Numbered from the stretch's first letter, positions 21,680-52,789 are shown. The stretch is 64,000 nucleotides of DNA from an uncultured archaeon (GCA_964551375.1 CAZKBG010000001.1:42833-106832), one strand, 5' to 3'. Notes: generated from the letters alone by a model not told the origin. Program-made: numbers and translations.

Positions 21680-22031
21680 GCTTATTTTGAAAACCCTATG
21701 ATTTTAAGTTAGTGGATTTTGGGGGCAGACAAATTGTCCAATAAAGTGTGTACTCATTTTTTCTTGGATTTTTTTAACTCTTCCTCAAGAACAATGAGCT
21801 GTTTTTTGCAGGTATAAATAGTCTGGGCGGCTTCGCTAAGCCTTGATTCAGAATACAAATTTGCGTCAAGCTTTTTGTTCTTAGACTGCCTAAGCTGAGC
21901 GGAAGCAATTCTCTTTCTCAATCTGCTGATTTTTTTATGCAGTTCTGACATATAAGTAAATTAAGCCTGCTTGTTGTATTTAATCCTGCTTTAGGTAAAC
22001 TATATATCCCGCAAATGAGGATAATTATGTT

Positions 22032-22730
22032 ATGCAAAACAAGCCTGTGCGAAAAAACTCTTTTTCAAAGCCAAAAGTGGACAAAACAGACCCTGCAAGA
22101 TTTAGGCGAACAACAAGATTAACTTGGCATTTAATGGAAGCCTCAAGAAAGCTTGGAAGAGGCCCTCCAAACGTAAAAGCAAAAAAAGTCGCTGAACTGG
22201 TTCTTGAAAAAATTCCAACTGATTTAAACATTATTCACTCTGAAAAAAACCGCCTTTTTAGAAGAAGCGCGCATAATGCTCTGCTTTATAAAAAGCCAAT
22301 CGGACCAATGCAATGCGCAGAGAGGTGCAATTTAGCAATTGCTCTTCTTAACGCATCAGGAGTAAAATCCTGGCTTGCGCGCGTAATTTATTTAGAAAGA
22401 AAAACAAAAACTTGGCATTTTCATGATTACGCAGAATTTGTTTCCGGAGAACGCGTTTACACACTGGTTTTTGGAACAAAGCCTGACGGAAGAGGGGATT
22501 ATACAATAATACCTGACGCGGTCGAACAAGTTTTTAAAGGCTCAAATCCGGTGGTGTTTAGGGCAACTGATTCAAAGCAAATAGGCGGGGTTGACAGCTG
22601 GGCAACTTACAAAGCATATTCAAGAAAGCTTAACCAGAGCTTTACAAAAGAAATGGTAAAAAATAGAAGAAGATTGGACCTGTTAATTAGAGAAGGAATA
22701 ATTCCTCAAGAAGCCCTTTGGCATATTTAA
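22032..22730 (+). CDS. transglutaminase-like cysteine peptidase superfamily protein (cytoplasmic), paralog 1
   Basis: QCAERCNLAIALLNASGVKSWLARVIY...WHFHDYAEF...D fits the Transglut_core pattern Cys...ALL.A.G(I/V)(P/K)AR.V...H.W.E.Y...D; no signal peptide; TATA (ctatatat) ~30 nt upstream. Confidence 0.6.
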   Translation: MQNKPVRKNSFSKPKVDKTDPARFRRTTRLTWHLMEASRKLGRGPPNVKAKKVAELVLEKIPTDLNIIHSEKNRLFRRSAHNALLYKKPIGPMQCAERCNLAIALLNASGVKSWLARVIYLERKTKTWHFHDYAEFVSGERVYTLVFGTKPDGRGDYTIIPDAVEQVFKGSNPVVFRATDSKQIGGVDSWATYKAYSRKLNQSFTKEMVKNRRRLDLLIREGIIPQEALWHI

Positions 22731-22771
22731 CGAACTTATTAATTCAGGCTCTGATAAATTCAACGCATTGA

Positions 22772-23578
22772 TTATTTTCTACGCATTAATCTATTTTGTT
22801 TCGGCTTAAGCATGGGCAAAACGCCTTGTTGAGTTCCCCTCAAAAATCTGGCAACAGCTTTTTGCTCAAGCCAGTCATATTTTCTTTTTGCTCTTGGAAA
22901 AGATTTGTACTTGCTTTTTTGAGGAACTCTTCGCCTTGCTTTTTCAGCAATTTGTGCTCTTAAATCTTTTTCTCTAAGATTTTGCGCGGTTTTTTTAAAT
23001 TTTCTTTCAGCAAGAACAGCGTCCCTTGCGCCTGCGCCAAGCCCAAATTTCGGCGGAATATTAGTTAATTTAAAATCCTTATTAGCCCACCCATGCGGAA
23101 TTTGAAGAAGCCTTGCCGCAGCCGCATCTTCTTTTAATCTTGAGCCAATCATAAGAGCATCTCTTCTTTCAATTCCCTCTCTTCGCATAATCTCAGCAAT
23201 TCTAATTGCTTTCCCGAATGCTTCTTCAGAAAGATAACCTGAATCCCGTGCTCTATCAACTCGCTGTTCATATGACGCTGATTTGAATACCACTCCGTTA
23301 TGCGCAGCTCTTTCAAAAAATTCTCTTTTAGTAATAGGTCTCACAATTTGAACGCTGTCAAAAATAGAAAAATCCCTGTACCCTGCCGATTTAAGCTGGT
23401 CGATTAATTTTGAAGGAGTGGTAGCCTGCGCTGTCACAAGCGTAATTTTAACACCCGCTTCAACAATTTGTTTTAACTTTAGCGGCAAATGTTTTGAAGG
23501 CGGTTTGTATGGTTTATGTTTATTTCCAGTAGGAACGACAAGAGTGTATTGGGGTTCAATAAAAAGCATCTTTTGCAT
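22772..23578 (-). CDS. hypothetical protein (268 aa)
   Basis: ORF only; basic C-terminus. Confidence 0.4.
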   Translation of the reverse strand: MQKMLFIEPQYTLVVPTGNKHKPYKPPSKHLPLKLKQIVEAGVKITLVTAQATTPSKLIDQLKSAGYRDFSIFDSVQIVRPITKREFFERAAHNGVVFKSASYEQRVDRARDSGYLSEEAFGKAIRIAEIMRREGIERRDALMIGSRLKEDAAAARLLQIPHGWANKDFKLTNIPPKFGLGAGARDAVLAERKFKKTAQNLREKDLRAQIAEKARRRVPQKSKYKSFPRAKRKYDWLEQKAVARFLRGTQQGVLPMLKPKQNRLMRRK

Positions 23579-23675
23579 AATTACTCTTCTTCTTTGATAT
23601 ATTTAACATATGAGGTTATGCCCAAGATTATAGCATATGTTAATTTTATATTTAGGAAAGTTCTATTTTCTGTGT

Positions 23676-25577
23676 ATGCAAAATAAGGATCAGAAAGGAC
23701 AGGGTACTATTGAGTACTTGGTTATTATTGCAGTAGTGATTGTGATAGCGTTAGTGGTAGTTGGCTTGCTCACAGGGCTTTTTGGTGACCTTGGATTGAG
23801 CTCAATTTTTGTTACTCCTGAAATTAAAGGACAAATCGGCTCAGGCGGGGTTAGCGTAGTTGATGCTGCTTCAGACCTTGATGGAAAAATACTTTTAGTA
23901 CTGCAAAATGACTCAAGCGATTCTTTTGAAATTACCGACATTAATTCAGGCGGTGGAAAATCTTCCTACCTTCCGACAAATTTAATTTTAGGGGACGAAA
24001 GGAGATTTTTGCTTGATGCTTCAAATCTTGAATGCATATGCTCCGCGGGAGAAACCCGCAGGATTTGCGAATTTACTGTGACGCTTACTTCAGCCGCGGG
24101 GCTTATAAAACAGGAGCAAATAAAAACTACCGTTGACTGCATTTCGCAGATAGTTGACAATCCAACAATAATTCACCCTTCAACTGTTGGTTTAATGTCT
24201 TTATCATGGGCGCGGGCGTCGCATGATATTAATCCGCCAATTGCAAATATGGAAAGCGCCGGAGAGCAAGTTGGAATTGATTCAAGTGGAAATGTATTTG
24301 TTTATGGATACGCGCATAGGGAATATACTGACATAAATTTTGGAGATGTGTATCTAAGCGCTTCCCCAAGCGAAGGAAGGTATGCATTTTTGGCAAAATA
24401 TAACCCGACAGGAACTGTTTTGTGGGCAATTGGAATTCCAAATGCTTGGTCCGGAGCATACCCTCAGCCGCTTGCAGTTGATTCCAGCGGAAATGTGTAT
24501 ATCACTGGAAATACAGACAGCAACATAGATTTGGGCGGGGGAGTAATTTATTATTCAAATGACTGGCGTGATTTTTTCATTGCAAAAATAGCGTCAAATG
24601 GAACTCCATTATGGATTAGGGGAGCTGGCGCAAATTCAGCTAATAGCGAAGGATTTACTGTGGGGCTTGATTTAAGCGGAAATCCAATGCTTGCGGGGTT
24701 ATTTGGCGGAGATTTAAATATTGACAATCACATCCTGACTGATTTAGGCGACGCGATGGTTTTTGTTGTGAAATATGATTCAGACGGAAATTATCTTTTG
24801 AGCCACACAAGCAGAATAAACGGCGCGATGAATATAAAAAATGGAATCGTTGACTCAAGTGGAAATTCATATTTCACAGGAGTTCAGCAGGCTGATGTAA
24901 ACTTTGGCGGAAATGTAACAATTGCTTCAAATGGTAACCAAAATTATTATGCAGTAAAATATGATTCAAATGGAAATCCGCTTTGGGCAAAAACAAGCTA
25001 TTCAAGAAACACCGATCTTAGAAGCATTGCAATTGACACTTTGGGAAACGTGCTTTTTACAGGATATTATTCAGGAGGATTTTTTGGAAATCCTGATTTA
25101 AATATCGGCGAAACAGTGCTTCACGGAACCAGCGCTGACAATTTATTTGTTCTTAAATATTCTTCTGCAGGGAGCCTTGTTTGGGCAAAAGTATCTGACA
25201 TTTTAGGAGCTTCAACAGTTTTATTCCCTGGGGGAATGGTTTCGGATTCAGAGAACAATGTATACATTGCAGGGCAGTATAGAAGCGGGGATGCAAATTT
25301 CGGCTCAATTTATTTTCCAACACCAATTCTTTCAACATTTAATTTCTTTGTCTTAAAATATTCTTCATTAGGAGTTCCAATTTGGGGAGATTATGCAAAA
25401 AGCTCTCAGGCGCTAATGTCGATATATTTGAATTCAATAAGTGCAAGCTCAAACGGAAGCATAGCAACAATAGGTGAGTTTAATACAATTGACATTAATT
25501 TTGGAAGTTATATCCTTCCAGCTTTGTATGACAGAAACACGAGTTTTTTTGTGGTGAAATACGCGCAGGCACAGTAA
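23676..25577 (+). CDS. pilin-like secreted protein: class III signal peptide fused to SBBP-type beta-propeller repeats
   Basis: MQNKDQKGQ|GTIEYLVIIAVVIVIALVVVGLL; repeats DSSGN(V/S)Y(I/F)TG ... (F/Y)(V/A)(V/L)KYDS(D/N)GN(Y/P)LW typical of SBBP beta-propeller repeats; TATA ttttatattt 22-31 nt upstream (leaderless); list ORF starts at 23637 but ATG 23676 is more likely. Confidence 0.65.
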   Translation: MQNKDQKGQGTIEYLVIIAVVIVIALVVVGLLTGLFGDLGLSSIFVTPEIKGQIGSGGVSVVDAASDLDGKILLVLQNDSSDSFEITDINSGGGKSSYLPTNLILGDERRFLLDASNLECICSAGETRRICEFTVTLTSAAGLIKQEQIKTTVDCISQIVDNPTIIHPSTVGLMSLSWARASHDINPPIANMESAGEQVGIDSSGNVFVYGYAHREYTDINFGDVYLSASPSEGRYAFLAKYNPTGTVLWAIGIPNAWSGAYPQPLAVDSSGNVYITGNTDSNIDLGGGVIYYSNDWRDFFIAKIASNGTPLWIRGAGANSANSEGFTVGLDLSGNPMLAGLFGGDLNIDNHILTDLGDAMVFVVKYDSDGNYLLSHTSRINGAMNIKNGIVDSSGNSYFTGVQQADVNFGGNVTIASNGNQNYYAVKYDSNGNPLWAKTSYSRNTDLRSIAIDTLGNVLFTGYYSGGFFGNPDLNIGETVLHGTSADNLFVLKYSSAGSLVWAKVSDILGASTVLFPGGMVSDSENNVYIAGQYRSGDANFGSIYFPTPILSTFNFFVLKYSSLGVPIWGDYAKSSQALMSIYLNSISASSNGSIATIGEFNTIDINFGSYILPALYDRNTSFFVVKYAQAQ

Positions 25578-25614
25578 ATTTTTAAGTTACTAAACCTCAC
25601 TCAGATGATTAAAA

Positions 25615-26424
25615 CTATTTTTTAACAATTTTCACTTCATCAGGGTCAATTCGGTGGCTGTTTGCATAATCATGCATTTCCATTTCCGCTTCAGTGATTT
25701 GTTTTTGAAGAATTTTTGAAAGCTGGATTGACTCAGCGCTTAAATTTTCAGTCCTCAATAAATTAGCTTTTTGCGCTTCTCTTTGCGCAATAAACTCTTT
25801 TACTGATTTGATTAGCATTTTTGGATTAGTTCTGTATAATTCAAAAGTCGTTGGAATTATGGAAATATTCACCGCTGCGTTTGCAAAAGCATCGCTTTTT
25901 GTCTGCCTTTGGACAAGCGTGCTATTTGCCATTTTGTGAAGCGAAGTGGCTTCATGCCCGATAAATTCAATTATGGGCTCCATAAGAGCTTCTCTTGATC
26001 TGCCATCAATAGCAGGCATTCTGTTAATAATTTTCATTAAGTAAAATTGCCTTGGCGGAGCCTGCTTAATGTTTGTTCCCTTAAAAACAGCTTCCCTTCC
26101 CCTTATCATGGATTCCATGAGCCTGAGCACTTGAGGGTTTCTCACAAAATGCCTTGAATTTGCAACCACTTGTTTTGCAATAAGGGCTCTTGCAACTTCC
26201 TGCGCATTTGAGAATGTTCCTGATTTTTTTCTTAAAAATACAGTGTCATGAGAGCGGATTGTTCCAACGCTTGGATTTCCTTTAAGTCTCTTCATCCACC
26301 CATTGTCAGCCATTATCATGGTGAGTTCATTAACCTGCCCGTTTCTGCGCAATACAGGCGCGCGGTTAAATCTTTTTTGCGCTGCTCCTTGCTGAGTTCT
26401 GTTATGCGGATGTCCATTAGCCAT
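25615..26424 (-). CDS. hypothetical protein (269 aa)
   Basis: ORF only. Confidence 0.4.
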   Translation of the reverse strand: MANGHPHNRTQQGAAQKRFNRAPVLRRNGQVNELTMIMADNGWMKRLKGNPSVGTIRSHDTVFLRKKSGTFSNAQEVARALIAKQVVANSRHFVRNPQVLRLMESMIRGREAVFKGTNIKQAPPRQFYLMKIINRMPAIDGRSREALMEPIIEFIGHEATSLHKMANSTLVQRQTKSDAFANAAVNISIIPTTFELYRTNPKMLIKSVKEFIAQREAQKANLLRTENLSAESIQLSKILQKQITEAEMEMHDYANSHRIDPDEVKIVKK

Positions 26425-26504
26425 ATTACTAATTTTGTGTTTTCGCTTAATTTAAAGGTTTTGGAGGAGGAAAATATCCTGTCCAATATTTTGAGATTAG
26501 CTTT

Positions 26505-27329
26505 TTGGATAAGCTTTTTAACAACCCTTGCATCAAGTTGTTTATGAGCGCAGGAAAAAAAATGAGGGTGTTTAGAAAACTCGCCGCGCACGATGCCAAG
26601 ATTTATGATGCACTACTCCCAAAACGCTCCTCAATTGCTCCTCACTTTAACAATACTCCAGTTGCTTCTTCAAAACATGTAAAAGTCGCAAAAACAGATC
26701 CTGCAAGATTTAGGCGAACAACAAGAGCAAATCATTTAGTTCATGAATTTGCCGCGCAGGTTAAAGGAGATAGTTTTCAAAAAGCAGAACAAATTGCAAA
26801 AAAAGTTCTTGAACAGATCCCAGGCTCTGATACAATTAAGGTAATTGAAAAGCGCAGAATATTCGCCCGCGGAGCAGGAATAGCGATGGCAGAAAAAAAA
26901 CCAATAGGGCCTTTTCACTGCGTTGAAAGATGCAATTTAGCACTTGCTCTATTAAACGCATCAGGGGTAAAATCCTGGCTTGCAAGAGTGATTGTATTTA
27001 ACCGCAAAATAAAGAAAGTTGAATTTCACGACTATGTTGAATTTTCAGCAGGCGGAGGAGTCTGCACATTAATGTTCACAAATCACAAAGGCACAGACAA
27101 AAACTTTGTTGTTCTTGAAGGCCCAGTTGAGTTATCAGTTCATTCCGTTGGGAATATGACACTTAGAGCTCTTGATTCAAAACAAATAGGCGGAACAGGA
27201 AACTGGAATGAGTATAAAAGATTTGAACGAAGAATTAGCGGCATGGGATTTTATAGGGAAATTAAAAAAAACGAGCGCAGAATTGAACTGCTTCAAAAAG
27301 AAGGATTAATGCCTCATAGATTATACTAA
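26505..27329 (+). CDS. transglutaminase-like cysteine peptidase superfamily protein, paralog 2
   Basis: Shares TDPARFRRTTR, KKPIGP(F/M)(H/Q)C(V/A)ERCNLA(L/I)ALLNASGVKSWLARVI, FHDY(V/A)EF and DSKQIGG with ORF 22032. Confidence 0.6.
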   Translation: MDKLFNNPCIKLFMSAGKKMRVFRKLAAHDAKIYDALLPKRSSIAPHFNNTPVASSKHVKVAKTDPARFRRTTRANHLVHEFAAQVKGDSFQKAEQIAKKVLEQIPGSDTIKVIEKRRIFARGAGIAMAEKKPIGPFHCVERCNLALALLNASGVKSWLARVIVFNRKIKKVEFHDYVEFSAGGGVCTLMFTNHKGTDKNFVVLEGPVELSVHSVGNMTLRALDSKQIGGTGNWNEYKRFERRISGMGFYREIKKNERRIELLQKEGLMPHRLY

Positions 27330-27366
27330 ACTTAACAATTATATTCTCAAGAGCTATTTTTCTATA

Positions 27367-28626
27367 ATGCAAAAAAGAGCGCAGTGCGTCCACAAAGGAC
27401 AGGGCGCAATAGAATATCTTCTGATTATAGGCGTTGCAATTCTAATAATTGCTGTAGTGATAATTGCAGTAATTGGAATATTAGGGCAGGGGCAGAATCA
27501 AAAAGACGATTCGCTTAATTTAGCCGGCTCAAGCTACAAAGGAATTTATGATATAATTGATACCATGCATAATGCAGTTAAATTAAAGATTCTGCTTAAT
27601 GTTGGAACTAATGAAATTAAGGTTCCTTCAGATATGTCTGCAGGGGATATATTTTTCTCAGCACCTCCTGAAGGAACAATACTAAAAAATCTTCCTTGTC
27701 CAGTTGCAACTTCTACTTTCACTTCAGGCGCTTGGGCTCCAACAATTGACTCCTGCAATGTTCCGGGCGGAAGCACAATTATTGTTGATGTTCCAAATAA
27801 TGGTTCTGAGGCAAATGTTGCTTTTACACTTCCAAATGAAGGGGTTCCTGAATTGATATTCTTTTCAGGCGGTAAGGGAACAATTGAGGACCCGTTTAAA
27901 ATTTCCACAATTAACCAGCTTCAAAATATTGACCGCGCTCTTGGGAAAAATTTTATTTTAGAAAATGATATTGATGCAAGTTCTAAAGTGGATTTTATTC
28001 CAATTGGGGCCAGAAGCGGAGTTCCATTTACTGGGACTTTTGATGGGAACAATAAAAAAATTTATAGATTAACAATTAATCAAATAAATGTTGATTCTGC
28101 TCTTAATGGATTAGTTCCTGTAAAAGTGACTAACTTAGGTCTTTTTAGCAAACTTGGCGCTGCGGGGCCTAATCGCGCACAAATTCATGATCTTAAAATT
28201 GAAGATGTTAAAATTTATGTTATTCCTGATGATGATTTTTTAGCCGCGGCAGCACAACCAAGTTCAGGCGGAGCTAATTCGGGGATATTATCAGGGCAAG
28301 CTGATTTAGCAAATGTTTCTTTTTCAAATATTGTAATTACAAGAGGGGAAATAAATTACACCTTCATGTCCACAATAAATCCGGGGTATACTGATGTTTC
28401 TTCAGTTGGGTGCTTATTTGGAAAAAACTCCCGCGCGACAGAGGGTAATACTTGTGTTTCACAAGATGTAAAAGTTACTTTGGTAAAAATTGATACTTTG
28501 AATTCTGGGGAGCCTGTGATTCATCCAACGCAAATTAACAATTGTAAGACAGTAAGTATTGTTCGCACAAGCGGGCTTAATCCGATTGGTTTTCAAACTA
28601 ATTGTGTTTCTTCTAATGACTCCTGA
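27367..28626 (+). CDS. pilin-like secreted protein with class III signal peptide (419 aa)
   Basis: MQKRAQCVHKGQ|GAIEYLLIIGVAILIIAVVIIAVIGIL; body includes a GTFDGNNKKIYRL-type motif seen in beta-helix/adhesin-like repeats. Confidence 0.6.
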   Translation: MQKRAQCVHKGQGAIEYLLIIGVAILIIAVVIIAVIGILGQGQNQKDDSLNLAGSSYKGIYDIIDTMHNAVKLKILLNVGTNEIKVPSDMSAGDIFFSAPPEGTILKNLPCPVATSTFTSGAWAPTIDSCNVPGGSTIIVDVPNNGSEANVAFTLPNEGVPELIFFSGGKGTIEDPFKISTINQLQNIDRALGKNFILENDIDASSKVDFIPIGARSGVPFTGTFDGNNKKIYRLTINQINVDSALNGLVPVKVTNLGLFSKLGAAGPNRAQIHDLKIEDVKIYVIPDDDFLAAAAQPSSGGANSGILSGQADLANVSFSNIVITRGEINYTFMSTINPGYTDVSSVGCLFGKNSRATEGNTCVSQDVKVTLVKIDTLNSGEPVIHPTQINNCKTVSIVRTSGLNPIGFQTNCVSSNDS

Positions 28627-28669: not shown

Positions 28670-29632
28670 ATGGCAAGGAAGTTAGTTTTGGCAGTTCTTC
28701 TGCTTTTTTTGACTGCGAGTGTATTTGCGCTTTGTGAAACAACTCCTGATAAAATAAAACGAATTGATTTGAGTTATAATATTCTTTCAGACGGAAGCGC
28801 GGATGCTACATTTGTGCTTTTAGTTGATTATTCCGAATCCTGCTTGATTGAACAATTTAAGGATTCAATTGACCGAAATCTTGATTCAAATTTTCAAATA
28901 GTTGAAATATCTTCAGATCAAGTATATTGTCCAAAAGAGTTTATTTTGAATAATGTAAAAACCGAGCTTGGGAACTTTCCTGACGGGCTAAATTGCATTT
29001 CAACTTTTGGAAACGACAAAAACACTGTGCGAATGAATTTAACAGGAAAAGCAACCAGTTTCGCAAAGAAAGTTGATTTGAACGGAGAAAGCGCTTATGA
29101 GCTCACGCTTGGCGGGACAGGTTTTATGGCTTCTCTTCCAAATGACAGTTCTCTTGTAATCCAGCTCCCAAATAATGCTTACTTTGTAAATCACTCTCCA
29201 TTAGAAGGGAGCACAAAGCAGCCTACTAAATTAACTTGGGCGCCTGTTCCAAGCGAAAAGGTTTTGGTTAATTATGCTCAAGAAGGCTCAATTTTAATCG
29301 CACAGCCGATTGTTCAGCAAAAGGATGATACAAATTATTTGTTAATCTTGATGATGGTGATTTTGGTTTTATTTGTTTTAGTTATAATTAATGTTCGCTC
29401 AAAAAGAGCAAGTATCCCAATTGCTGAGCAAAGCCTTGAAGCACAGCTTAAGGATGTAAAGGACAAAATAAAAAATTTAGAGCAGATGTACATGAAAAGA
29501 ATGATTGATGAAACAACTTACCGCCACCTAAACGAGCAGTATCAAGTGCAGTTGAATGAAGTTGTTGTTAAGATAAAGAAACAAAATGAAAGCAAAAATC
29601 CAGCAAATCCAACTCCTTCAAAAACAGAGTAA
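28670..29632 (+). CDS. secreted, C-terminally membrane-anchored protein with cytoplasmic coiled-coil tail
   Basis: Signal MARKLVLAVLLLFLTASVFA; TM LLILMMVILVLFVLVIINV near the C-terminus followed by a coiled-coil. Confidence 0.5.
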   Translation: MARKLVLAVLLLFLTASVFALCETTPDKIKRIDLSYNILSDGSADATFVLLVDYSESCLIEQFKDSIDRNLDSNFQIVEISSDQVYCPKEFILNNVKTELGNFPDGLNCISTFGNDKNTVRMNLTGKATSFAKKVDLNGESAYELTLGGTGFMASLPNDSSLVIQLPNNAYFVNHSPLEGSTKQPTKLTWAPVPSEKVLVNYAQEGSILIAQPIVQQKDDTNYLLILMMVILVLFVLVIINVRSKRASIPIAEQSLEAQLKDVKDKIKNLEQMYMKRMIDETTYRHLNEQYQVQLNEVVVKIKKQNESKNPANPTPSKTE

Positions 29633-29702: not shown

Positions 29703-31676
29703 TTAAATTTTAATTTTAAAAAACTCTTCAACTTCTTTCTCAGGCTCTTTAGTATGCACTGCGACAAAGTCTTTGGGATAAAATCTCTTGTACCTGTCCT
29801 CTCCAAACCTTTCATCAAGGAATACGCAAACCCCTCTGTCCGTTTCAGTTCTAATAACCCTTCCAGCCGCCTGCATTGCTTTATTTATTGCAGGGGCATT
29901 GTAAGCATAATCCCAACCTTTTCTAAACTTTTTTTCGCAGTAATTGATTAAAGCGTTTGAGTAAATATTCATTTTAGCAAAAGGAATTCCAACAATAATT
30001 GCGCAGCTTAAGTAATCTCCGGGAAAATCAAGCCCTTCCGCAATGCTTCCCCCGCTCACGGCAAGCAGCACTCCGCCAAAACCGCTTCCAAGAGTTTTGA
30101 ATTTATTCACAAGCTTGGTTTTCTCATCCTGCGTCATTTCCCTCTCCTGCTTTAACACCTGCCTTCTTGTTTTGAGAAGATTTGCGATAGAGTACATTAG
30201 TTCAAACGAAGGGAAGAATACAATAGTATTTCCAGGAACTTTTGAAACAATTTTATCAATCTCGTTTGCAATATCAAAGTACTGCGTAGAGCTTCTGGCA
30301 GTGTATTTAGTAGTGGTTTTAGTTGCGATTAAATTCAACCTGTTTTCTTTTGGAAAAGGGCTTTTGTATTCTTTAGTAATCACTTTTAGCGTGTCAAAAT
30401 TTTGCCCTTCAAGCTCCTGTTTGTGAATTGAAAGCGCAGTAGCCGCTCCAAGCGAATTATTTTTGAGCCCTGCTTCTTCCTGTTGTTTAGCGTTGAATTT
30501 AGAATTTAACTGGGTGACTCCAAAAACATCAGAAAACATCGCAAGCGGCAAGAGGGTTCCAGACATAAGCACTGCGGAATGAACCTGCGAGAGAACATTA
30601 CTTGTCATATCAGCAGGATCAAGCGGCTGAACGGTAATGGTGAGCGAGCCCTTTCTTTCAATAACAAAATGAGTATGCTCCTTTTCATTATGAATATCAT
30701 GCAAAAACTCATCCACTGCAAGCAGGTAACAGTTCTCGGTCTTATTTTTGTTCATGAATTTTGTAGACGCTTCGCTGATTTTTTCCCTTTCCATAAGCCC
30801 TACTTTTCTTAAAAATAGCAAATCAGTTCCTTCAAGCACCGCTTCATTTTTCTCAAGCGAAAGCTTTTTTCCAAGGTTAAGAATTTCTTTCCCAATATCC
30901 TTAATCAAAAACTCCATTTCAAAATCCCCCACATTTTTAGCTTCCTTCTCCGCTTTCTCAATTGCATTGAGGTCAATGCTTGTCGTCATCATATCCCTAA
31001 TTCTTTCAGGCATATTGTGGGCTTCATCCACCACAAGAACTATGTCCTCAAGTGCAAGTTCGCTTGGGCCAAGTATTCCTTCCCTGATTTCAGGGTGGAA
31101 TAAGTGAGAATAATCTCCAATAACTAAATTAGCTCCCTTAATCATTTCAAGCGTGATTTCATAAGGGCAAAGCCCCTTGAATTGGCAAGTATCTTTCATA
31201 TAAGCGTAAGAATTATTGTAAGACTGCAAAATCTCCCTTTTTCTTCTATGCGCAATCGCTTTTTGCTTTGGAGAAAACCCTTTAGTGTTATTATAGTAAC
31301 TGCACGCCTTGTCCTTTTTCTTTTTCGCGCATGCTTCATAAAACCCCATTCCCACTCTTGAAATAAAAGAATCCACGCACATCTGCTTTCTTCCCACAAG
31401 ATCCACCGCTTTAATTCCAAGCTGGAATTTTGAATTCATCAAATTCGCAGTTTCAAGAACAATTTCGTGCTGGGAAATTTTAGGAGTGAGAAAGAAAACC
31501 TTTTTGTTATTATCAAGCGCATAGCTAAGCGCAGGCGCTAATGAAGAAACGGTTTTTCCTAGGCCAGTCGGGGCATGCGCAAGAAAAATCTTCTGCTTTG
31601 AAACAGCGTGGCTGACATCTTTTACAAGTTCCTGCTGCTCTGCCCTTACTTTTTCATAAGGAAAATAAACCTTCAT
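29703..31676 (-). CDS. xpd: XPD/Rad3-family ATP-dependent 5'-3' DNA helicase (FeS-cluster helicase)
   Basis: MKVYFPYEKVRAEQ...HAPTGLGKT (Walker A), four-Cys FeS module (C..C..C..C between motifs I and II), VVDEAHNM (DEAH), QAAGRVIRTETDRG (motif VI). Confidence 0.8.
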   Translation of the reverse strand: MKVYFPYEKVRAEQQELVKDVSHAVSKQKIFLAHAPTGLGKTVSSLAPALSYALDNNKKVFFLTPKISQHEIVLETANLMNSKFQLGIKAVDLVGRKQMCVDSFISRVGMGFYEACAKKKKDKACSYYNNTKGFSPKQKAIAHRRKREILQSYNNSYAYMKDTCQFKGLCPYEITLEMIKGANLVIGDYSHLFHPEIREGILGPSELALEDIVLVVDEAHNMPERIRDMMTTSIDLNAIEKAEKEAKNVGDFEMEFLIKDIGKEILNLGKKLSLEKNEAVLEGTDLLFLRKVGLMEREKISEASTKFMNKNKTENCYLLAVDEFLHDIHNEKEHTHFVIERKGSLTITVQPLDPADMTSNVLSQVHSAVLMSGTLLPLAMFSDVFGVTQLNSKFNAKQQEEAGLKNNSLGAATALSIHKQELEGQNFDTLKVITKEYKSPFPKENRLNLIATKTTTKYTARSSTQYFDIANEIDKIVSKVPGNTIVFFPSFELMYSIANLLKTRRQVLKQEREMTQDEKTKLVNKFKTLGSGFGGVLLAVSGGSIAEGLDFPGDYLSCAIIVGIPFAKMNIYSNALINYCEKKFRKGWDYAYNAPAINKAMQAAGRVIRTETDRGVCVFLDERFGEDRYKRFYPKDFVAVHTKEPEKEVEEFFKIKI

Positions 31677-31778: not shown

Positions 31779-32345
31779 TTATTTATTTTTATAATGCGCT
31801 TCAATATCCCAAGAGCTCCAAGCAAGGCACTCTTTGTCACTAAATCCCAATTTTTTTGCCAATTGATGAACCGCTTTAATGCTTGGCCCCTCAATTTCCA
31901 AAAAACACGGCACAAATCTGTGCTTTCCAAGGTACTTTTCAATTTCAACATGACTTTTTCCTAACTTCCAGCTGGTTCTGTTCTTATCCATGCCGCCGAT
32001 TTTCACAAGCCCAAGCGCAGTGAAGATTTTTTGCATATCTTCAAAGCTTCCAATTTCAAATTCAGTTTCTTCAGCAGTTTTTGCTTTTGCGCTCTTGTGC
32101 TTTTGATGTTTATGAGTAAGAACGCACTGCACTTTGCCCTTAGTGTCAGTCATTTTTCTTAATCTTAGTATTTGCTTGTTTTTCTTTAATCTCCTGTCAG
32201 GGTAATCCATAATAATTGCTTCAATTTTTCCTTCAAATGCTTTTTTAGCCCCAAGTTTTGCAAGCCTAGCCTCAACTTTTTTTTTATTAATCTCAATTAT
32301 CTTAACTTCAATCTCTTTCATAATCTCACATTCATTTCCATTCAA
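31779..32345 (-). CDS. CYTH-domain protein (triphosphate tunnel metalloenzyme family)
   Basis: N-terminal EIEVKIIEI and C-terminal EIE acidic triads; size ~180 aa; the start may be the internal Met (MKEIEVK) at 32321. Confidence 0.55.
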   Translation of the reverse strand: MNGNECEIMKEIEVKIIEINKKKVEARLAKLGAKKAFEGKIEAIIMDYPDRRLKKNKQILRLRKMTDTKGKVQCVLTHKHQKHKSAKAKTAEETEFEIGSFEDMQKIFTALGLVKIGGMDKNRTSWKLGKSHVEIEKYLGKHRFVPCFLEIEGPSIKAVHQLAKKLGFSDKECLAWSSWDIEAHYKNK

Positions 32346-36264: not shown

Positions 36265-38703
36265 TTGCCTCCTCTAAAAAAAATGAGTTATGAAGCCAGC
36301 CCCGGCGAACTCTATAAAGGAATAACCTCAACAGGCGAAGTTTTTGAAGGCGAAACAAAGCTTGTGATGGAAAAAGACCCTGAATTTGTTATTCTTTGCA
36401 AAAAAATGTATAAAACTTTTCCCGGATTTGGAGCGGGAGCAAAATTTCCTGAAGAACATTTAGAAGCAGTGCGATTTCTTGGGTGGCGCTTATCTCCTCA
36501 AGAATTTATGGCGGCAGTAAAAGGAACCGCAGTAATAGGAGGAGTGGGCGGATTTATTGCACTCATTGTTTTAGCATTTGTAGGACTAAGCATTGATTTA
36601 GGAATTGGCTCCCCAATAGGACTTGGATTGTTCAGTGAAATGCTCGGCGATTTTGCAATGGTAATAATTCTCGCAGGAGGAGTAGTCCTTTTTGGAATTG
36701 TGGGCGCAATTGCATACACAATTTATGTAACTCCAATAAACATGGCTGAGGATGAAAGAACAAGAGCGCTTACGTATGTTCCCGAAATGATTGGATATTT
36801 AATAATGTCAATGAAACTTGTTCCAAATTTAGAAAAAGCAATTGAATTCTCCGCAAAGCACGGAAAAGGAAAAGTTGCGGACGATTTTAACAAAGTTATT
36901 TGGGATTTTCAGAACGGATTTTACTCCTCAATCAGCGAAGGGCTTGACGCAATGGCTTTTAGATGGGCAAAGTACTCCGTTGAACTAAAAGAAGCTTTAA
37001 TGAAAATAAGGGCAAGTGTAATGGAGCCAAGCGAATCAAAAAGATATTCTCTTTTAGACAAAACAATGCTTGATGTTCTTGACAGTGTTAAGGATAAAAT
37101 GGGGGATTATGCAAGAAGCTTAAACCAGCCATCAGTAATGCTGTTCTATATTGGAGTCTTGCTCCCTTTATTACTTGTAATAATTCTTCCAGTGGGCTCA
37201 GCATTTTCAAACATGCCATTTGCAACAACCCCAATTCTTGTTGGAATTTACTGTTTCATGATTCCTTTCATGGCATTTAGCTTTGCAAAAGGAGTGATTA
37301 AGAAAAGGCCTCCTACTTACGAGCCTCCAGTTATTACCGATAATTTTGCAGGACTTCCGCCAAAATGGTCAATGAAACTTGGCGGGGGAATGATTGACGC
37401 GCGTCTTGCAGTAATAGGAATATTAATTTTAGGAATAGCAGGCTCTTTTATTATTTCATTTGAAGGAATTCCTCCAAAGCATTTATTTCCAATAGAAGAT
37501 GGAATATTCCAAGTTCCAATCCAAATAATTCCAGCAGATCCACAGCCAGATGAACTTTACAAAGATTTTTTAGGCGGAAAGAATTATTTTGAAAAAGTTG
37601 TGCTTGATTTGTACGCATTTCAAATAGGCGAAGGATTTGGCGGAGGATTAAAAGAAGGGGAAAGATACAAACAGTTGATTAAAGAACAAGTATCTCCAGT
37701 AGCAGCAGAAATTCAAGTAGTAAAAGAACGTCTTGATTTTACTTCAAAATCAGCAAGAAACGATCCAACAAAATATGTGTTCTGGGCAGGGCTTATTTTA
37801 ACAATCGCATGCGCTGGAAGCTTCCTTTTGTATCATAGAAATATTTACAAACTCAAAGCGCAGGAGCAAATTGTTCAAATGGAAGATGAATTCAAAGAAT
37901 CAATGTACATGATTGCTTCAAGAATGGGGGAGAACAAGCCAGTTGAAAGCGCATTAAAGCAGGCAAAAGAATATTTGCCAAACCTCTTAGTCAGCAAAAG
38001 AATTTTTGGAAAAACCGTTGAAAATATTGAGCTTATGGGACTCCCTCTTGAGAACGCAGTGTTTGACCCGGTGTATGGAGCAATGCGCGGAATTCCCTCA
38101 AAAATTTTAACCACCGCAATGCGACTGCTTGTTGATTCAGTAACTCTTGGAGTGGAAGTTGCGTCAAGAACCCTAATGTCACTCTCGCTTCAAATGGAAA
38201 ACATGGACAAGGTAAACAAATCCCTAAAAGACATGGTTTCGGATGTAACAACCACTATGTCCACTATGGCGATTTTTATTGCGCCAATGGTTCTTGGGAT
38301 AACTACCGCGCTTCAAAAAGTTGTGCTAAATACACTTGGTAGTGTAGTATCCTCTCCGTCTCTTGAAGCAACAGGAAGCGTTGGAGACATTAGCGGGGGA
38401 GCAGGAAGCCAAATCCTTCAATCCACTGGCCTTGGCGGAGGAATGGGGGATATTAACAGTATTTTCAGCGTGAGTATAGATGCTTTCCGCTCATTTGCAA
38501 CTCCTCTTGAATACATGCTGATAATTGGAACATACGTTGCAATGATAGTAATAATTCTAACTTATTTCACTGTGAAAATAAAAGAAGACAATGACTTGAT
38601 ATTTAGAGTAACTCTTGCAAAACAACTTCCAATCGCAATGGCGGTTTACTTATTCACAACCGTTGCTGCAAATTTAATGGTTGGAGGATTGATGTCAAGG
38701 TAA
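36265..38703 (+). CDS. FlaJ/PilC/TadC-like polytopic platform protein (812 aa) with two T2SSF-like cytoplasmic domains
   Basis: Two helical cytoplasmic domains (…KAIEFSAKHGKGKVADDFNKVIWDFQNGFYSSISEGLDAMAFRW… and …SALKQAKEYLPNLLVSKRIFGKTVENIELMGLPLENAVFDPV…), each flanked by TM helices, as in T2SSF platform proteins; TTG start. Confidence 0.5.
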   Translation: MPPLKKMSYEASPGELYKGITSTGEVFEGETKLVMEKDPEFVILCKKMYKTFPGFGAGAKFPEEHLEAVRFLGWRLSPQEFMAAVKGTAVIGGVGGFIALIVLAFVGLSIDLGIGSPIGLGLFSEMLGDFAMVIILAGGVVLFGIVGAIAYTIYVTPINMAEDERTRALTYVPEMIGYLIMSMKLVPNLEKAIEFSAKHGKGKVADDFNKVIWDFQNGFYSSISEGLDAMAFRWAKYSVELKEALMKIRASVMEPSESKRYSLLDKTMLDVLDSVKDKMGDYARSLNQPSVMLFYIGVLLPLLLVIILPVGSAFSNMPFATTPILVGIYCFMIPFMAFSFAKGVIKKRPPTYEPPVITDNFAGLPPKWSMKLGGGMIDARLAVIGILILGIAGSFIISFEGIPPKHLFPIEDGIFQVPIQIIPADPQPDELYKDFLGGKNYFEKVVLDLYAFQIGEGFGGGLKEGERYKQLIKEQVSPVAAEIQVVKERLDFTSKSARNDPTKYVFWAGLILTIACAGSFLLYHRNIYKLKAQEQIVQMEDEFKESMYMIASRMGENKPVESALKQAKEYLPNLLVSKRIFGKTVENIELMGLPLENAVFDPVYGAMRGIPSKILTTAMRLLVDSVTLGVEVASRTLMSLSLQMENMDKVNKSLKDMVSDVTTTMSTMAIFIAPMVLGITTALQKVVLNTLGSVVSSPSLEATGSVGDISGGAGSQILQSTGLGGGMGDINSIFSVSIDAFRSFATPLEYMLIIGTYVAMIVIILTYFTVKIKEDNDLIFRVTLAKQLPIAMAVYLFTTVAANLMVGGLMSR

Positions 38704-38777
38704 AGCAGATTACTGCTTGAATGCCTTGGCACTTAACTAATTAAAATTAAATGAAGTTTTGATTTTGAGGGGATGAA

Positions 38778-39260
38778 TTGGATAACAAAGGACAGGCAGA
38801 AGCAGTATTCCGCCTTATGATTGACTCAATAATTGGGCTTGCAATTTTAATGATAATAATAGCATCAATAGGCTACTTTGATGAACTAAGATTTATCCAG
38901 TCAACTTCTGATTTTAAACAGCTTGTAAAAGATGCAGTAAATTCTCCTGATGGGACTCTTCTCTCCGCAAAAGAATTAACATTTAAAGACGGCGCAGGAT
39001 TTGCAGCGGATGACTTTGAAGGATACACAGTAGTAAACAGAAAATGCTTCTCCTTTTTCTCTTCCTTTGCTTCAGTTGAAGTATCAGATGATGCCCAAGC
39101 AGTGCTCTTCAAACAAAGGCTCATTGCTTCGGTAAGCGCAAGGTGCATTCCAAATGCAGCAGCATCTTCATGCATATCAAGCGTTGATGCTGAAATAACT
39201 TCAGACAGCGACTGCTGCTTTAAGTGCGAAATATACTTTGGCAGAGTTCCTCAAAATTAA
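38778..39260 (+). CDS. pilin-like protein with class III signal peptide
   Basis: MDNKGQ|AEAVFRLMIDSIIGLAILMIIIA. Confidence 0.5.
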   Translation: MDNKGQAEAVFRLMIDSIIGLAILMIIIASIGYFDELRFIQSTSDFKQLVKDAVNSPDGTLLSAKELTFKDGAGFAADDFEGYTVVNRKCFSFFSSFASVEVSDDAQAVLFKQRLIASVSARCIPNAAASSCISSVDAEITSDSDCCFKCEIYFGRVPQN

Positions 39261-39358
39261 TCTTAATTGGATTAAAACCCTTAATTGCCCGCCAAAAAAG
39301 GCAAGTTTAAATACTTCAAAGTTCTTTTTCCTAAAGTGAATTCCTAAGGGGGATTATA

Positions 39359-39895
39359 ATGTTTAAGTTGAACCAGAAAGGACAGCAGTTCAGTGTTTTT
39401 GAGCTGATGATTGCGGGTATTGTAGCTTTTGCAATCTTGATGCTTTTACTCACAATAATAATGAAAGTTGATATCGGTGGACAGGGCGGAAATCCAAAAT
39501 CAGTAATTGAAAACGGAATTTCAAGCGCATTGCCATCATCAACAATAACAACAAATAATTTTACAATGAAAGCCGGAGATGAAGTGACTTCGGAGGATTT
39601 GATAAACAAAACAGGGCTTGATGCTTCAAGAATATACTTTGTCGCAGGTCAAATGAAGCTTGATACAGATGTAACAATAGTAGAACTCGACGACGGCGGA
39701 GCATCTTTAACAAACAAACGCTCAGGCGATTTAAGAGTTAGAGCAAAAGTAATTTGCAAAGCAAATGGACTTTCAGTTGCAGGCGCTCTTGAGAGACTAG
39801 GAGACAAATATGATGTTTCTTCATTTTCTGATAGCATGTGCGAAGAAGACAATCAGTCATGCTGTGTAGTAGTGCTTGAAAAACCAGGCAACTAA
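39359..39895 (+). CDS. pilin-like protein with class III signal peptide
   Basis: MFKLNQKGQ|QFSVFELMIAGIVAFAILMLLL. Confidence 0.5.
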   Translation: MFKLNQKGQQFSVFELMIAGIVAFAILMLLLTIIMKVDIGGQGGNPKSVIENGISSALPSSTITTNNFTMKAGDEVTSEDLINKTGLDASRIYFVAGQMKLDTDVTIVELDDGGASLTNKRSGDLRVRAKVICKANGLSVAGALERLGDKYDVSSFSDSMCEEDNQSCCVVVLEKPGN

Positions 39896-39962
39896 AGAGT
39901 TTTTTTGAATAGAAAAGAAGTATTATATACTTCTTTTCACTATTTCTTTTTGAGAGATTAAA

Positions 39963-40118
39963 ATGTCTAAGTCAAGCATACTTAAAGAAGAAGCTGCAGC
40001 AGGGGATTTTGGCGCGGTTTATATGATATTAGTTTTCGCAATAGTAGCGCTGTTATTGGTTCTAATAGTAAAGCCGATGTTTCAAAGCGCGCAAAAATCA
40101 ATCCCAAAAGCGCAATAA
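39963..40118 (+). CDS. unannotated sORF: 51-aa single-pass membrane protein inside the pilin array
   Basis: MSKSSILKEEAAAGDFGAVYMILVFAIVALLLVLIVKPMFQSAQKSIPKAQ; ATG 39963, TAA 40116-40118; below the 60-aa ORF-track cutoff. Confidence 0.3.
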   Translation: MSKSSILKEEAAAGDFGAVYMILVFAIVALLLVLIVKPMFQSAQKSIPKAQ

Positions 40119-40188
40119 TTTTTAATTTTCTAAATTAGTTTTTGTATTTTAGTGGTTTGTTTTAGTAGTTTAGAGTTTTGGTGTTGTA

Positions 40189-40773
40189 ATGAAGTTTATC
40201 CGCAAAAATAAAGGGCAGGTTTCTGCTCCGTTTGAGCTTTTAGTTGCGGTAGTAATAATGGCTTTTGTAGTAATTGTAGGCTGGAAAGTATTAACCGACG
40301 CAAAACTCCAATCCTGCCTTAACACAGTGGATAAATCAATGACTGATTTTAAAATAAATCTTGAAGACACTGCGAATAGAAGAAGCGAGAATTTTTTTAA
40401 TTTCAGCCCTGACAGGACCTGTTTTTATTCAAAAGATTCCGCAATGAAGATTTATCTTGAAAAGAGTTCAAGCGTCTGTGCGGCGATATGCAAGCGCCCC
40501 GTGCAGGAGTGCTATGTGCTAAAATTTGCAAACCAATCAATTCCAAACGCAGCTAAAAATAAATGCCTTGAGCTTCCGACTTATACAAGCTTCACCGCGT
40601 CAGGCGATTTGTGTACTAATATTGACCAAACTCTTTATCGTGGTTATGAGCCTGTGAATCCGCTTGGGGATGACGGGGATAATTTAGGAATCGGACAGTA
40701 TGTTTTCAAGTATGTTGCGCTTCAGGGACAGGCATTCCCGCAGATTTGCATTTGGTTTAGGCCAAGCGGCTGA
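40189..40773 (+). CDS. pilin-like protein with class III signal peptide
   Basis: MKFIRKNKGQ|VSAPFELLVAVVIMAFVVIVGW; Cys-containing body paralogous to ORF 40788. Confidence 0.5.
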   Translation: MKFIRKNKGQVSAPFELLVAVVIMAFVVIVGWKVLTDAKLQSCLNTVDKSMTDFKINLEDTANRRSENFFNFSPDRTCFYSKDSAMKIYLEKSSSVCAAICKRPVQECYVLKFANQSIPNAAKNKCLELPTYTSFTASGDLCTNIDQTLYRGYEPVNPLGDDGDNLGIGQYVFKYVALQGQAFPQICIWFRPSG

Positions 40774-40787
40774 TGAAGTGATAAAAT

Positions 40788-41330
40788 ATGCTTGAAAAAA
40801 TAATCCTTGCAGTGATTCTAATTGTTGCCGTGATTGGAGTAGTATACTACGGTCAGGACATTACCCCCGCTCTTGGGGCAGGGTGCAGCAATAATTCAAA
40901 GTTAAGCATTGAATCCTCAATTAAGGAATTTCGAATGGGGATCGAAACGGCAATGAAAGGCTCTGATTATGAATTTACATTTGCTCCTGATAGGGACTGC
41001 TTTGAATCAAAAGACTCTTCATTTAAGATTGAGTACATTACAAACATGTCGCTTTGCGGAGCGCTGTGCGATAATCCAGAAGATGAATGCAGAATGCTTG
41101 TTTACACAAACCCCACAGGATTTCCTTACAATAAAGTATCAACTTTTTGCATAAATAATTCAAAGTACATGGGGTTTGCTTTTGACAATGCTTCATGCGG
41201 AAATATTCCCCAAGGATACGTTCCAATAAATCCAATTAAGGAGGATTTAAATTCAGGGAAATACTTGATTAGGAATATGTCGCTTCCGCAGAACTCTCCT
41301 CGGATTTGCATATTGTATAAAGCAAGCTAA
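40788..41330 (+). CDS. pilin-like/secreted protein, paralog of ORF 40189
   Basis: N-terminal signal anchor; shares F(S/A)PDR(T/D)CF(Y/E)SKDS..(K/F)KI and C(A/G)A(I/L)C..P..EC..L with ORF 40189. Confidence 0.45.
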   Translation: MLEKIILAVILIVAVIGVVYYGQDITPALGAGCSNNSKLSIESSIKEFRMGIETAMKGSDYEFTFAPDRDCFESKDSSFKIEYITNMSLCGALCDNPEDECRMLVYTNPTGFPYNKVSTFCINNSKYMGFAFDNASCGNIPQGYVPINPIKEDLNSGKYLIRNMSLPQNSPRICILYKAS

Positions 41331-41431
41331 CTTAGCAAGTTGAAGTTTGGCGGGTTAAGTTAAGTAAGTGGGTTTAAGTTAAGAAAGTTAAACAGGATGA
41401 AGTTAAAGGTTATTTTCAAAAAGGTGTTAAG

Positions 41432-42253
41432 TTGTTAGGATTTGTTTTAGGAAAAATGCAGATGCTGTTTTTTGCAGTAGGGGTTGCAGTTGTCGCGCTT
41501 TTATTTTACAACTTTATAGTAACTCTTGGGCTTCATCAAGATGCAAATAATATGCTTCTTACTAATGCCAGAATTGTTTCAGACCAATTGAACAGCGATT
41601 TAACCTGCTCGTTCAAAACAACTTCCATTCAGGACAGATTTTACTATGGGATTGGCGGAATTCCGCTTTATTATGATTTAGAAATGACAAAGCAGAGCTT
41701 TGGGGATGCGTCGCTAGGAAACCAGCAAAACCAGCTGATTATGAGAATTGTTGAGCATAAATCCTCCACCCGCCAGAATCAGACAAAAAATGTTCTTGCC
41801 ACAAAAGCAATTCTAACAGATGCGCAAATAGTTCTAATCGACCCGGGATTTTTGAAAGAATTAGCGGGAATCAGCGATGTCCACTATAATAAAGATATTA
41901 TTGCGCTTTATCCAAGAGCCGGCTCTTCAAGCGAACTTCAAGCATCTTCTCCTGATTCTTTTGTTGCGCTAAAAGAAATTGAGAACGGAAAAACAACCAT
42001 TTACATAATCCCTTGCGCGACAGCAAAAGAAAGCCAGTCAAATAACTGTCTGAATAACATTCTAAGACTTGGGTGCTATAAACTTTCAAAAGAATACACA
42101 GGAAATCTTAATGCAGATAACCCTCTTCTTCCATCCTGCTTTAATGTAACAACACAACTGGGTCCTGAAATTGAGCGCTCAAAGAACTTCCGCTGGGCTG
42201 ACTGCTCTAATGTCGGATTTGTTAACGCAAACATTGGAATGTACACTCCCTAA
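41432..42253 (+). CDS. pilin-like/N-terminally anchored secreted protein
   Basis: MLGFVLGKMQMLFFAVGVAVVALLFYNFIV. Confidence 0.45.
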   Translation: MLGFVLGKMQMLFFAVGVAVVALLFYNFIVTLGLHQDANNMLLTNARIVSDQLNSDLTCSFKTTSIQDRFYYGIGGIPLYYDLEMTKQSFGDASLGNQQNQLIMRIVEHKSSTRQNQTKNVLATKAILTDAQIVLIDPGFLKELAGISDVHYNKDIIALYPRAGSSSELQASSPDSFVALKEIENGKTTIYIIPCATAKESQSNNCLNNILRLGCYKLSKEYTGNLNADNPLLPSCFNVTTQLGPEIERSKNFRWADCSNVGFVNANIGMYTP

Positions 42254-42305
42254 AGCAAATCAAAACTATTATTAATAAAGAAGAGTTACTTGTGGTAGTG
42301 GGTTT

Positions 42306-42881
42306 ATGTTTAAATCAAAAAAAGGTTTTATTGGCCCGATTGGGGACGACTTGCCTTCACTTGTTCCAATAGTTGTATCTCTGCTTTTGTTTTTCACAAC
42401 TTTCACCCTTGCGCTTAATACTTATAATACAAAAAATGCTTTCATAAACCAGCAGACTGAAATGACTTCGGTTGCGAGAGAATTAAAGGGAGATTCTCTG
42501 ATTTTGGGAGTGGATTGGTTTGAAAATAAATGCAAACAGCTCAAAATGAAAAGATATCCAAATAATTTCATTGCGGCGATTTATGATTCAGATGTTGAAA
42601 TGAATTTAATAATGGCGGATTTTTTAGGGCTCTCAGCAACAAATCCCACGCTTGACCCTACTGCCGCGACTTTATTAAAATCCGTATCCCAGTCAGACGG
42701 CTCCCAAAAACCATTTTACTGCGAGTACAAAAAGATTGGCGCGCAGCCATTTTCAGCGAGCTCAAAGAAGCGCTATCAGGTGAGATTTTATCCGGTTGCA
42801 GTTCAATATGGATTTACTGCGGCAGGAACAACTAATCACTTAATTATCCCTGGATTAATGGCGATGGTGGTTTGGGAATGA
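42306..42881 (+). CDS. pilin-like/N-terminally anchored secreted protein
   Basis: MFKSKKGFIGPIGDDLPSLVPIVVSLLLFFTTFTLAL. Confidence 0.45.
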   Translation: MFKSKKGFIGPIGDDLPSLVPIVVSLLLFFTTFTLALNTYNTKNAFINQQTEMTSVARELKGDSLILGVDWFENKCKQLKMKRYPNNFIAAIYDSDVEMNLIMADFLGLSATNPTLDPTAATLLKSVSQSDGSQKPFYCEYKKIGAQPFSASSKKRYQVRFYPVAVQYGFTAAGTTNHLIIPGLMAMVVWE

Positions 42882-52738: not shown

Positions 52739-52789
52739 AACCAGTTCACATCCTGCTAATTTTGCTTTTAGAGTTTTTCTTCGTTAATT

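Follow-up and report, generated by a model that had tools for sequence, protein, structure and literature searches.

A 64-kb stretch of DNA from an uncultured archaeon (GCA_964551375.1, CAZKBG010000001.1:42833-106832; the whole stretch is referred to as the window) carries two genes, T1 (22032..22730, + strand) and T2 (26544..27329, +), that encode transglutaminase-fold proteins of 232 and 261 amino acids, respectively. The best-supported conclusion of the present analysis is that T1 and T2 represent a new, divergent and lineage-restricted family of soluble, strongly basic proteins of ~230 amino acids within the known transglutaminase-like superfamily. Both genes lie near a gene for a protein with a class III (prepilin-type) signal, S1 (23676..25577, +) and S2 (27367..28626, +), and the initial annotation had interpreted T1 and T2 as a dedicated maturation, cross-linking or proteolytic partner of such surface proteins. 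We lean towards a different reading, in which T1 and T2 are old paralogues of an orphan transglutaminase-fold enzyme family and their class III neighbours reflect inherited gene order. Below, genes of the T1/T2 family are designated TGL, and L and P numbers denote related contigs and proteins.

Both T genes were recovered in the open reading frame (ORF) calls and are clear paralogues, as had been claimed, sharing 48% identity over 213 amino acids (E 2e-64). The shared motifs quoted earlier are real; Cys95 is the Cys of 'QC' in QCAERC and His131 is the second His of HFHD. The start of T2 had been placed at a TTG codon at 26505, yielding 274 amino acids, but 26544 is the likelier start and gives the 261-residue form found in the public collection (P0009). 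Family-wide homology of T2 starts only near position 26680, ~45 residues inside this form, and an N-terminal extension of ~35-45 amino acids is absent from other members. T1 has an orthologue, P0002, with 69% identity, and the T2 orthologue in L004 is 62% identical. That the proteins lack a signal peptide was confirmed: the maximum Kyte-Doolittle mean over 19 residues is 1.3, leaving neither with a hydrophobic segment. Since no hydrophobic segment, transmembrane helix or signal is present and the isoelectric point (pI) of both is 10.2, T1 and T2 are predicted to be cytoplasmic. A pI above 10 was also observed for the neighbouring proteins H1, H2 and o65 (see below), while S1 and S2 have pI values of 4.5-5.2, and large, very basic orphan proteins occur at several other TGL loci as well, e.g. 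at L001 6365-7504 and L004 4596-5966. At the nucleotide level, a 46-nt stretch over the KTDPARFRRTTR motif is 91% identical between T1 (22073-22118) and T2 (26681-26726) and uses the same Arg codons. An RNA or DNA element, or gene conversion, was considered for this stretch and rejected: 10 of 11 codons are identical (binomial P ~0.016, calculated by hand and before correction for multiple windows), which is not clearly beyond the baseline of 56% identical codons among identical residues over the whole T1/T2 gene pair.

The proposed transglutaminase-like fold is borne out by profile matches, conserved residues and a structure model. In Pfam, Transglut_core (PF01841) matched T1 with 15.8 bits (E 0.018), under the gathering cut-off of 23. 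This profile search, suggested earlier as a check, thus yielded weak, sub-threshold matches, among them that of T1, for 8 of 14 family members in all (best E 5.7e-4), but none for T2. Searches of NCBIfam, PHROGs and PADLOC gave no match for T1, T2, H1 or H2, so that a defence-system or viral origin is unsupported. PDB searches with T1 (phmmer) and with profiles of the family alignments A1 and A2 returned chance matches only at E<=10. Structure prediction, the other check that had been suggested, gave a confident AlphaFold2 model from the family alignment (predicted local distance difference test 85, predicted template modelling score 0.83). The model displays the papain-like alpha+beta core of the transglutaminase-like superfamily and supports a transglutaminase-like (papain-type) fold for T1 and T2. 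In structure comparison the next-ranked proteins were vasohibins (7.4-7.6), arylamine N-acetyltransferases (NATs), CPR-C4 (7.1) and Rad4/XPC (7.1 and 6.4); Foldseek was concordant at lower significance.

A 37-member alignment, with 18-69% identity to T1, left only Met1, Cys95, His131 and Glu135 invariant, and Arg98, Trp114, Asp132, Arg177, Asp180 and Gly186 near-invariant. According to the secondary structure of the model, Cys95 lies just before helix 96-108 and His131 inside strand 127-138, the canonical positions for this fold. His131 is part of an H-D-x-V-E motif (family form H-x-x-V-E), which corresponds to HxWxE, the signature of TG2, and to the consensus of the Pfam model. Of the Cys/His/Asp triad that had been proposed, Cys and His therefore hold across the 37 members, but the canonical Asp, expected in the next strand at ~His+17 to +23, is not: family-wide, F147 is followed by G, T, E, D, H, R, L, F or A, with Asp in clade A only. 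Based on these residues, T1 and T2 are predicted to be active cytoplasmic thiol enzymes with a protein or peptide as substrate; they would use a Cys-His acyl-enzyme intermediate and function as a peptidase/amidase, deamidase or acyl-transferase. The third position of the triad may be taken by a backbone carbonyl, or by Asp132 or Asp180, rather than by the canonical Asp.

The nearest known proteins are those of the transglutaminase-like superfamily (PF01841; e.g. PDB 3isr and 3kd4, LapG 4fgo and Streptococcus pyogenes TglA 9crn). T proteins differ from them in scoring below the gathering threshold, in lacking an NCBIfam match and a conserved canonical Asp, and in being cytoplasmic (as predicted), very basic and single-domain, with their own N-terminal RF(R/K)RTTR motif and a long C-terminal helix, as seen in the alignment and the model. 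In style of function the family is, on the best-supported view, closest to vasohibins, CPR-C4 and NATs. The core of the T model is structurally similar to vasohibins (VASH1/2) and to CPR-C4 of Candidate Phyla Radiation bacteria; however, sequence homology is not detectable, and T proteins are archaeal whereas the others are bacterial or eukaryotic. Vasohibins and CPR-C4 have a Cys-His-Leu(carbonyl) catalytic set (PMC9108980). The non-conserved side chain at the third position in the 37-member alignment is compatible with such a Cys-His-carbonyl scheme, and a backbone carbonyl as third member is plausible for the T family. For SVBP, the small helical partner of vasohibins, o65 offers a positional hint only of a counterpart. 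NATs, of ~280 amino acids, have an extra lid domain and show no sequence similarity to T proteins, and acetyl-CoA use by the latter is unsupported. PNGase and Rad4/XPC differ in having BHD (beta-hairpin domain), PUB or zinc-binding modules, which T proteins do not have.

The family is small. A word-indexed search of 5.8 billion proteins gave 14 members, and 45 were recovered when 1.84 billion representatives were searched exhaustively with a profile, either of ~200-250 amino acids or fragments; no bridge to larger transglutaminase families appeared in the latter search. Genomes were scanned with alignment A1, A2 being too divergent for scanning, and the matches include two contigs of Candidatus Forterrea sp. 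(phylum Iainarchaeota, DPANN group, Nanobdellati). Most relatives are found in unclassified archaeal metagenome-assembled genomes and the named ones belong to Iainarchaeota. Pilin modules like that of S1 match 'Candidatus Iainarchaeum sp.', and genes for TFE and Trm56 beside one TGL locus confirm the archaeal setting.

S1 and S2 both start with class III signals, as had been annotated. Their scores with PF04021 (Class_IIIsignal), 22.4 and 19.5 bits, are just below the cut-off of 23.7, and a custom class III hidden Markov model gave E 4e-17 and 2e-13, respectively. Both have a short charged leader, a cleavage-site Gly and a hydrophobic helix at residues 15-36 (Kyte-Doolittle maximum 3.4-3.6). 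With archaeal type IV pilin-like class III proteins (PF04021/UPF0333) they share the basic leader, the QG|(T/A)IEY site and the hydrophobic helix, but S1 and S2 are fused to large passengers (an SBBP propeller and Glug, with LamG in relatives). S1, which has an alternative start at 23637, was correctly recognised as an SBBP beta-propeller protein (Pfam SBBP, E 1e-12). Its first ~170 amino acids form a pilin-like domain homologous to free-standing, PF04021-annotated pilin-like proteins of ~150 amino acids, so 'pilin-fused' is an apt description of S1; the propeller makes up the remainder of the protein. In S2 the signal is followed by the start of a Glug-type domain (amino acids 169-259), and the S2 orthologue in L021 is 43% identical. 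The two passengers had been described as unrelated. Indeed, direct comparison of S1 and S2 shows only the signal peptide in common; the two align, however, with separate portions of one protein, the class III neighbour of a clade A TGL gene (L013 1838-3331, Glug-annotated), residues 5-165 of S1 matching its pilin domain (E 1e-10) and residues 169-259 of S2 its Glug start (E 2e-13).

The order of genes in this region is T1(+) H1(-) S1(+) H2(-) T2(+) S2(+), in which H1 (22772..23578, -) and H2 (25615..26424, -) encode basic orphan proteins of 268 and 269 amino acids. The initial annotation gave ~0.9 kb as the distance from each T gene to the class III gene downstream of it, with an opposite-strand gene splitting each pair. 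This holds for T1 and S1, which are interrupted by H1; T2 and S2 are only 37 bp apart, and H2 is located between S1 and T2. In total, a class III gene is adjacent to or within two genes of a TGL gene in eight contexts, i.e. T1 and T2 of the window, L021, L004, L001, L007, L009 and L013. A protein with class III signal, pilin domain and Glug directly follows TGL in L001, L009 and L013, a Metallophos gene lies between TGL and the class III gene in L007, a class III LamG protein is encoded upstream of TGL with o65 in between in L004, and L021 has the order H2, T2-like, S2-like. No class III gene was found within +/-6 kb of TGL in L016, L017, L018 and L026; the pairing is also absent in L030 and from the shorter flanks of L022, and the short contigs L014 and L020 did not show it. 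Other genes surround TGL there: L016 has XPD(-), a 280-amino-acid gene(-), TGL and a 137-amino-acid gene, the Forterrea-like contigs L017, L018 and L026 have a ResIII helicase, TGL, and then PIN or GNAT(-) and Dus, L020 has LigT followed by TGL, and L030 has TFE, Trm56 and TGL. In the Forterrea-like metagenome contig L029 (352-2503), a transposase-like ORF of 447 amino acids separates a fragment of a class III leader from a TGL gene that is truncated at its 5' end. This arrangement looks like a disruption mediated by an insertion sequence and hints at a former class III gene upstream of TGL in the Forterrea-like clade.

Neighbourhood recurrence, which had been put forward as a check of the pairing, was thus observed in eight contexts, but all of these belong to one subgroup. 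In a single neighbour-joining tree, calculated without bootstrap, T1 with P0002, T2 with P0008, and clade A form one group that contains every class III adjacency. For this reason the eight pairings amount to about one ancestral arrangement, inherited and once duplicated. More distant TGL members have the other neighbours named above (ResIII helicase/PIN/GNAT/Dus, LigT, Trm56/TFE).

The history of the locus is visible in L021, which is collinear with the window (GGDEF-like, Nudix, hemerythrin, o65, H2, T2, S2, transmembrane protein) but lacks T1-H1-S1, so that ~21952-25614 is an extra block in the window. The alternative offered initially, that the T genes mark the boundaries of a duplicated cassette, is partly right in this respect, and no direct or inverted repeats flanking the block were found. 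A second genome with the T1 arrangement is represented by the P0002 contig, on which a 76-amino-acid gene, a T1-like gene and an opposite-strand 272-amino-acid gene follow each other. T1 is equidistant from T2 (48%) and clade A (~44-50%); because T1 is as far from T2 as from clade A, the duplication is old. The matches of the L013 neighbour to both S1 and S2 fit a history in which an ancestral T+S pair was duplicated and then underwent domain replacement, but do not prove it, since the pilin domain is also present in an unlinked 904-amino-acid protein (1725-4439). In the preferred scenario, an ancestral TGL gene would have adjoined a variable surface-protein locus near XPD-CYTH and, possibly together with a pilin+Glug neighbour, would have been duplicated to give T1-(H1)-S1 and T2-S2, each T and S gene apparently under its own promoter. 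The T2 orthologue of L021 (5349-6012) was found to be split across two frames near residue 114, for which an assembly error is likelier than a pseudogene (contig coverage ~3.2x).

It is nevertheless conceivable that T acts specifically on the adjacent class III pilin-fused proteins, T-S being a functional two-gene module. Before export, T might trim the short cytoplasmic leader or attach an acyl group to it; alternatively, the pilin module might be cross-linked or processed by T. QG(T/A)IEY class III genes do occur near TGL in the eight contexts, and L029 keeps a remnant of one. Three proteins with this leader subtype are encoded in the 64-kb window, two of them beside T genes. The passengers differ (SBBP, Glug, LamG) but are attached to a common leader and pilin module, both pairs survived the old duplication, and a very basic T faces an acidic S. 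These positives, however, all come from one subgroup of the tree and count as about one evolutionary event, and they are set against the contigs L016, L017, L018 and L026, without a class III gene within +/-6 kb, and the shorter flanks of L022. As T has no export signal, mature surface proteins are out of its reach. The removal of archaeal leaders is performed by membrane prepilin peptidases, and PF04021 class III proteins occur far beyond the T family. By eye, class III leaders look alike whether or not the gene adjoins TGL, and no feature of the adjacent proteins that is lacking in the non-adjacent ones was found by visual leader comparison or in the pilin domain. The T2-S2 and clade A pairs are on the same strand with gaps of 37-85 bp, but a TATA-like box is located ~25-35 nt upstream of every T and S gene, and the intervening genes vary by context (H1, Metallophos, o65). 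In view of the single subgroup, the absences, the separate TATA-like boxes and the indistinguishable leaders, a dedicated maturation, cross-linking or proteolytic partnership is not established, and we regard it as an unlikely, minority hypothesis. The more specific proposal, that T would be a dedicated cytoplasmic-face processing or acylating factor for QG|xIEY pilin-fused precursors before export in this Iainarchaeota subgroup, appears rather unlikely.

A second possibility is that T works with superfamily 2 DNA helicases (XPD, XPB-like), comparable to the Rad4/XPC-PNGase branch of the superfamily. T might then bind DNA as a partner of the helicase, or be an enzyme with a repair protein as its substrate. 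The gene for the XPD/Rad3 helicase (29703..31676, -) is a conserved landmark near TGL genes. It is found one to three genes from TGL in the window (T2), L004, L016, L001 and L007, and at the contig end in L009; in L016 TGL is on the other side of XPD. DEAD_2 and Helicase_C_2 are recognised in the orthologues, and identity to the XPD of the window is 85% in L004, 66% in L016 and 66% in L001. In the Forterrea-like clade, a ResIII/Helicase_C helicase of 736-827 amino acids (L017 2663-5146, L018 3728-5938, L026 3689-5923) is encoded upstream of TGL in the same orientation, with a gap of 42-57 bp, and among solved structures XPB proteins are nearest to it (E 8e-9). The pI of 10.2 and the basic N-terminal RFRRTTR motif would also suit such a role. 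Yet the Forterrea-clade helicase scores only 24 bits on the XPB model, with a cut-off of 610, and among NCBIfam models it is best matched by a dnd restriction helicase. Synteny alone may account for the proximity of XPD, and a high pI is common to the adjacent orphan proteins too. In structure comparison Rad4 and XPC score below many unrelated transglutaminase-fold enzymes, and T is a single domain of 230 amino acids without the BHD domains. Rad4/XPC are catalytically inactive, whereas T keeps an invariant Cys and His, which argue for catalysis. A function in repair is therefore improbable. A further recurring neighbour is Pterin_4a (PCD/DCoH-like), encoded directly before TGL in clade A (L001 7604-7939, L007, L009, L011, L013) and two genes upstream of TGL in L019; no homologue was found in the window. 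The helicase, Pterin_4a and o65 neighbours may keep a nucleic-acid-related role open, but synteny would explain them equally well.

Very improbable, finally, is a structural or regulatory protein that keeps the fold and conserves Cys and His for another purpose, e.g. metal binding: the non-conserved canonical Asp, the sub-threshold Pfam scores and a second Cys, C99 (CxxxC spacing), kept in the core subfamily could be read in this way, but other members carry S, T or G instead of C99, and Cys and His (with Glu135 and Met1 only) are invariant across very divergent members (18-50% identity), exactly at the catalytic positions.

The reading of T1 and T2 as paralogous enzymes with an inherited gene order has points against it as well. 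Eight contexts, with only three genes of the leader subtype in 64 kb, are more than random placement gives, and this above-random T-S proximity leaves a functional link possible. Both T-S pairs have been retained after an old duplication, and many of the contigs without the pairing are short. Furthermore, the Cys-His geometry and the identity of the third residue are deduced from sequence and secondary structure, and the activity and substrate of T1 and T2 are predicted.

H1 and H2 had been annotated as opposite-strand hypothetical genes and are real genes. An H2 orthologue with 60% identity is present at the same position in L021, and the 272-amino-acid gene beside P0002, in the same position and on the opposite strand, is a syntenic counterpart of H1. 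H1 and H2 show no similarity to each other. H1 gave weak HAD-like matches only and H2 gave no family match in Pfam, NCBIfam, PHROGs and PADLOC; H2 is divergent in orientation from T2. Divergently from T1, o65 (21754..21951, -) encodes a very basic (pI 10.2), probably helical protein of 65 amino acids. Homologues of o65 directly adjoin TGL in L004, with 66% identity, and H2-T2 in L021, with 61%, the 76-amino-acid gene on the P0002 contig is at the o65 position, and o65 is divergently upstream of TGL in the window, L004 and L021. Beyond S2 follow a gene for a membrane-anchored protein of 320 amino acids (28670..29632, +) with an N-terminal Sec-type signal and a C-terminal transmembrane helix, also present 3' of the S2-like gene in L021 (71% identity), the XPD gene, and a gene for a CYTH-domain protein (31779..32345, -) that is syntenic with XPD.

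Other class III and pilus proteins are encoded elsewhere in the window. The gene for the 904-amino-acid class III protein (1725-4439, -; PF04021 24.1 bits) adjoins no T gene; the pilin-like N-domain of this protein is 35% identical to that of S1, and the rest apparently consists of three long internal repeats ('...GNGKFNDGNTYKWN...'). A locus resembling those for type IV pili is located at 36283-43693 (+) and 51791-55067 (-). It harbours an 806-amino-acid orphan and, after it, six small ORFs whose hydrophobic N-termini are similar to class III signals, e.g. KGQ|QFSVFELMIAG at 39359 and KGQ|VSAPFELLVAV at 40189. Further along are the genes for a T2SSE ATPase (E 9e-40) and for a pair of T2SSF membrane proteins, and this pilus machinery is 10-25 kb from the T/S region. 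Within the 64-kb window, no gene could be recognised as a prepilin peptidase.

With T1 and T2 the transglutaminase-like superfamily gains an uncatalogued family, for which no Pfam, NCBIfam, PHROG or PADLOC model exists. The practical value of this finding is an annotation and a testable hypothesis rather than a new mechanism. If T were a dedicated factor for pilin-fused precursors, it would represent a maturation step undescribed for archaeal type IV pilin-like proteins. The locus near XPD shows how pilin-fused surface proteins diversify by swappable passengers (SBBP, Glug, LamG). In the bacterial Candidate Phyla Radiation the family has a parallel in CPR-C4, an orphan protease of vasohibin-like type, and T proteins, if active, would be among the few predicted cytoplasmic thiol hydrolases or transferases of these reduced genomes, which makes them a target for substrate finding.

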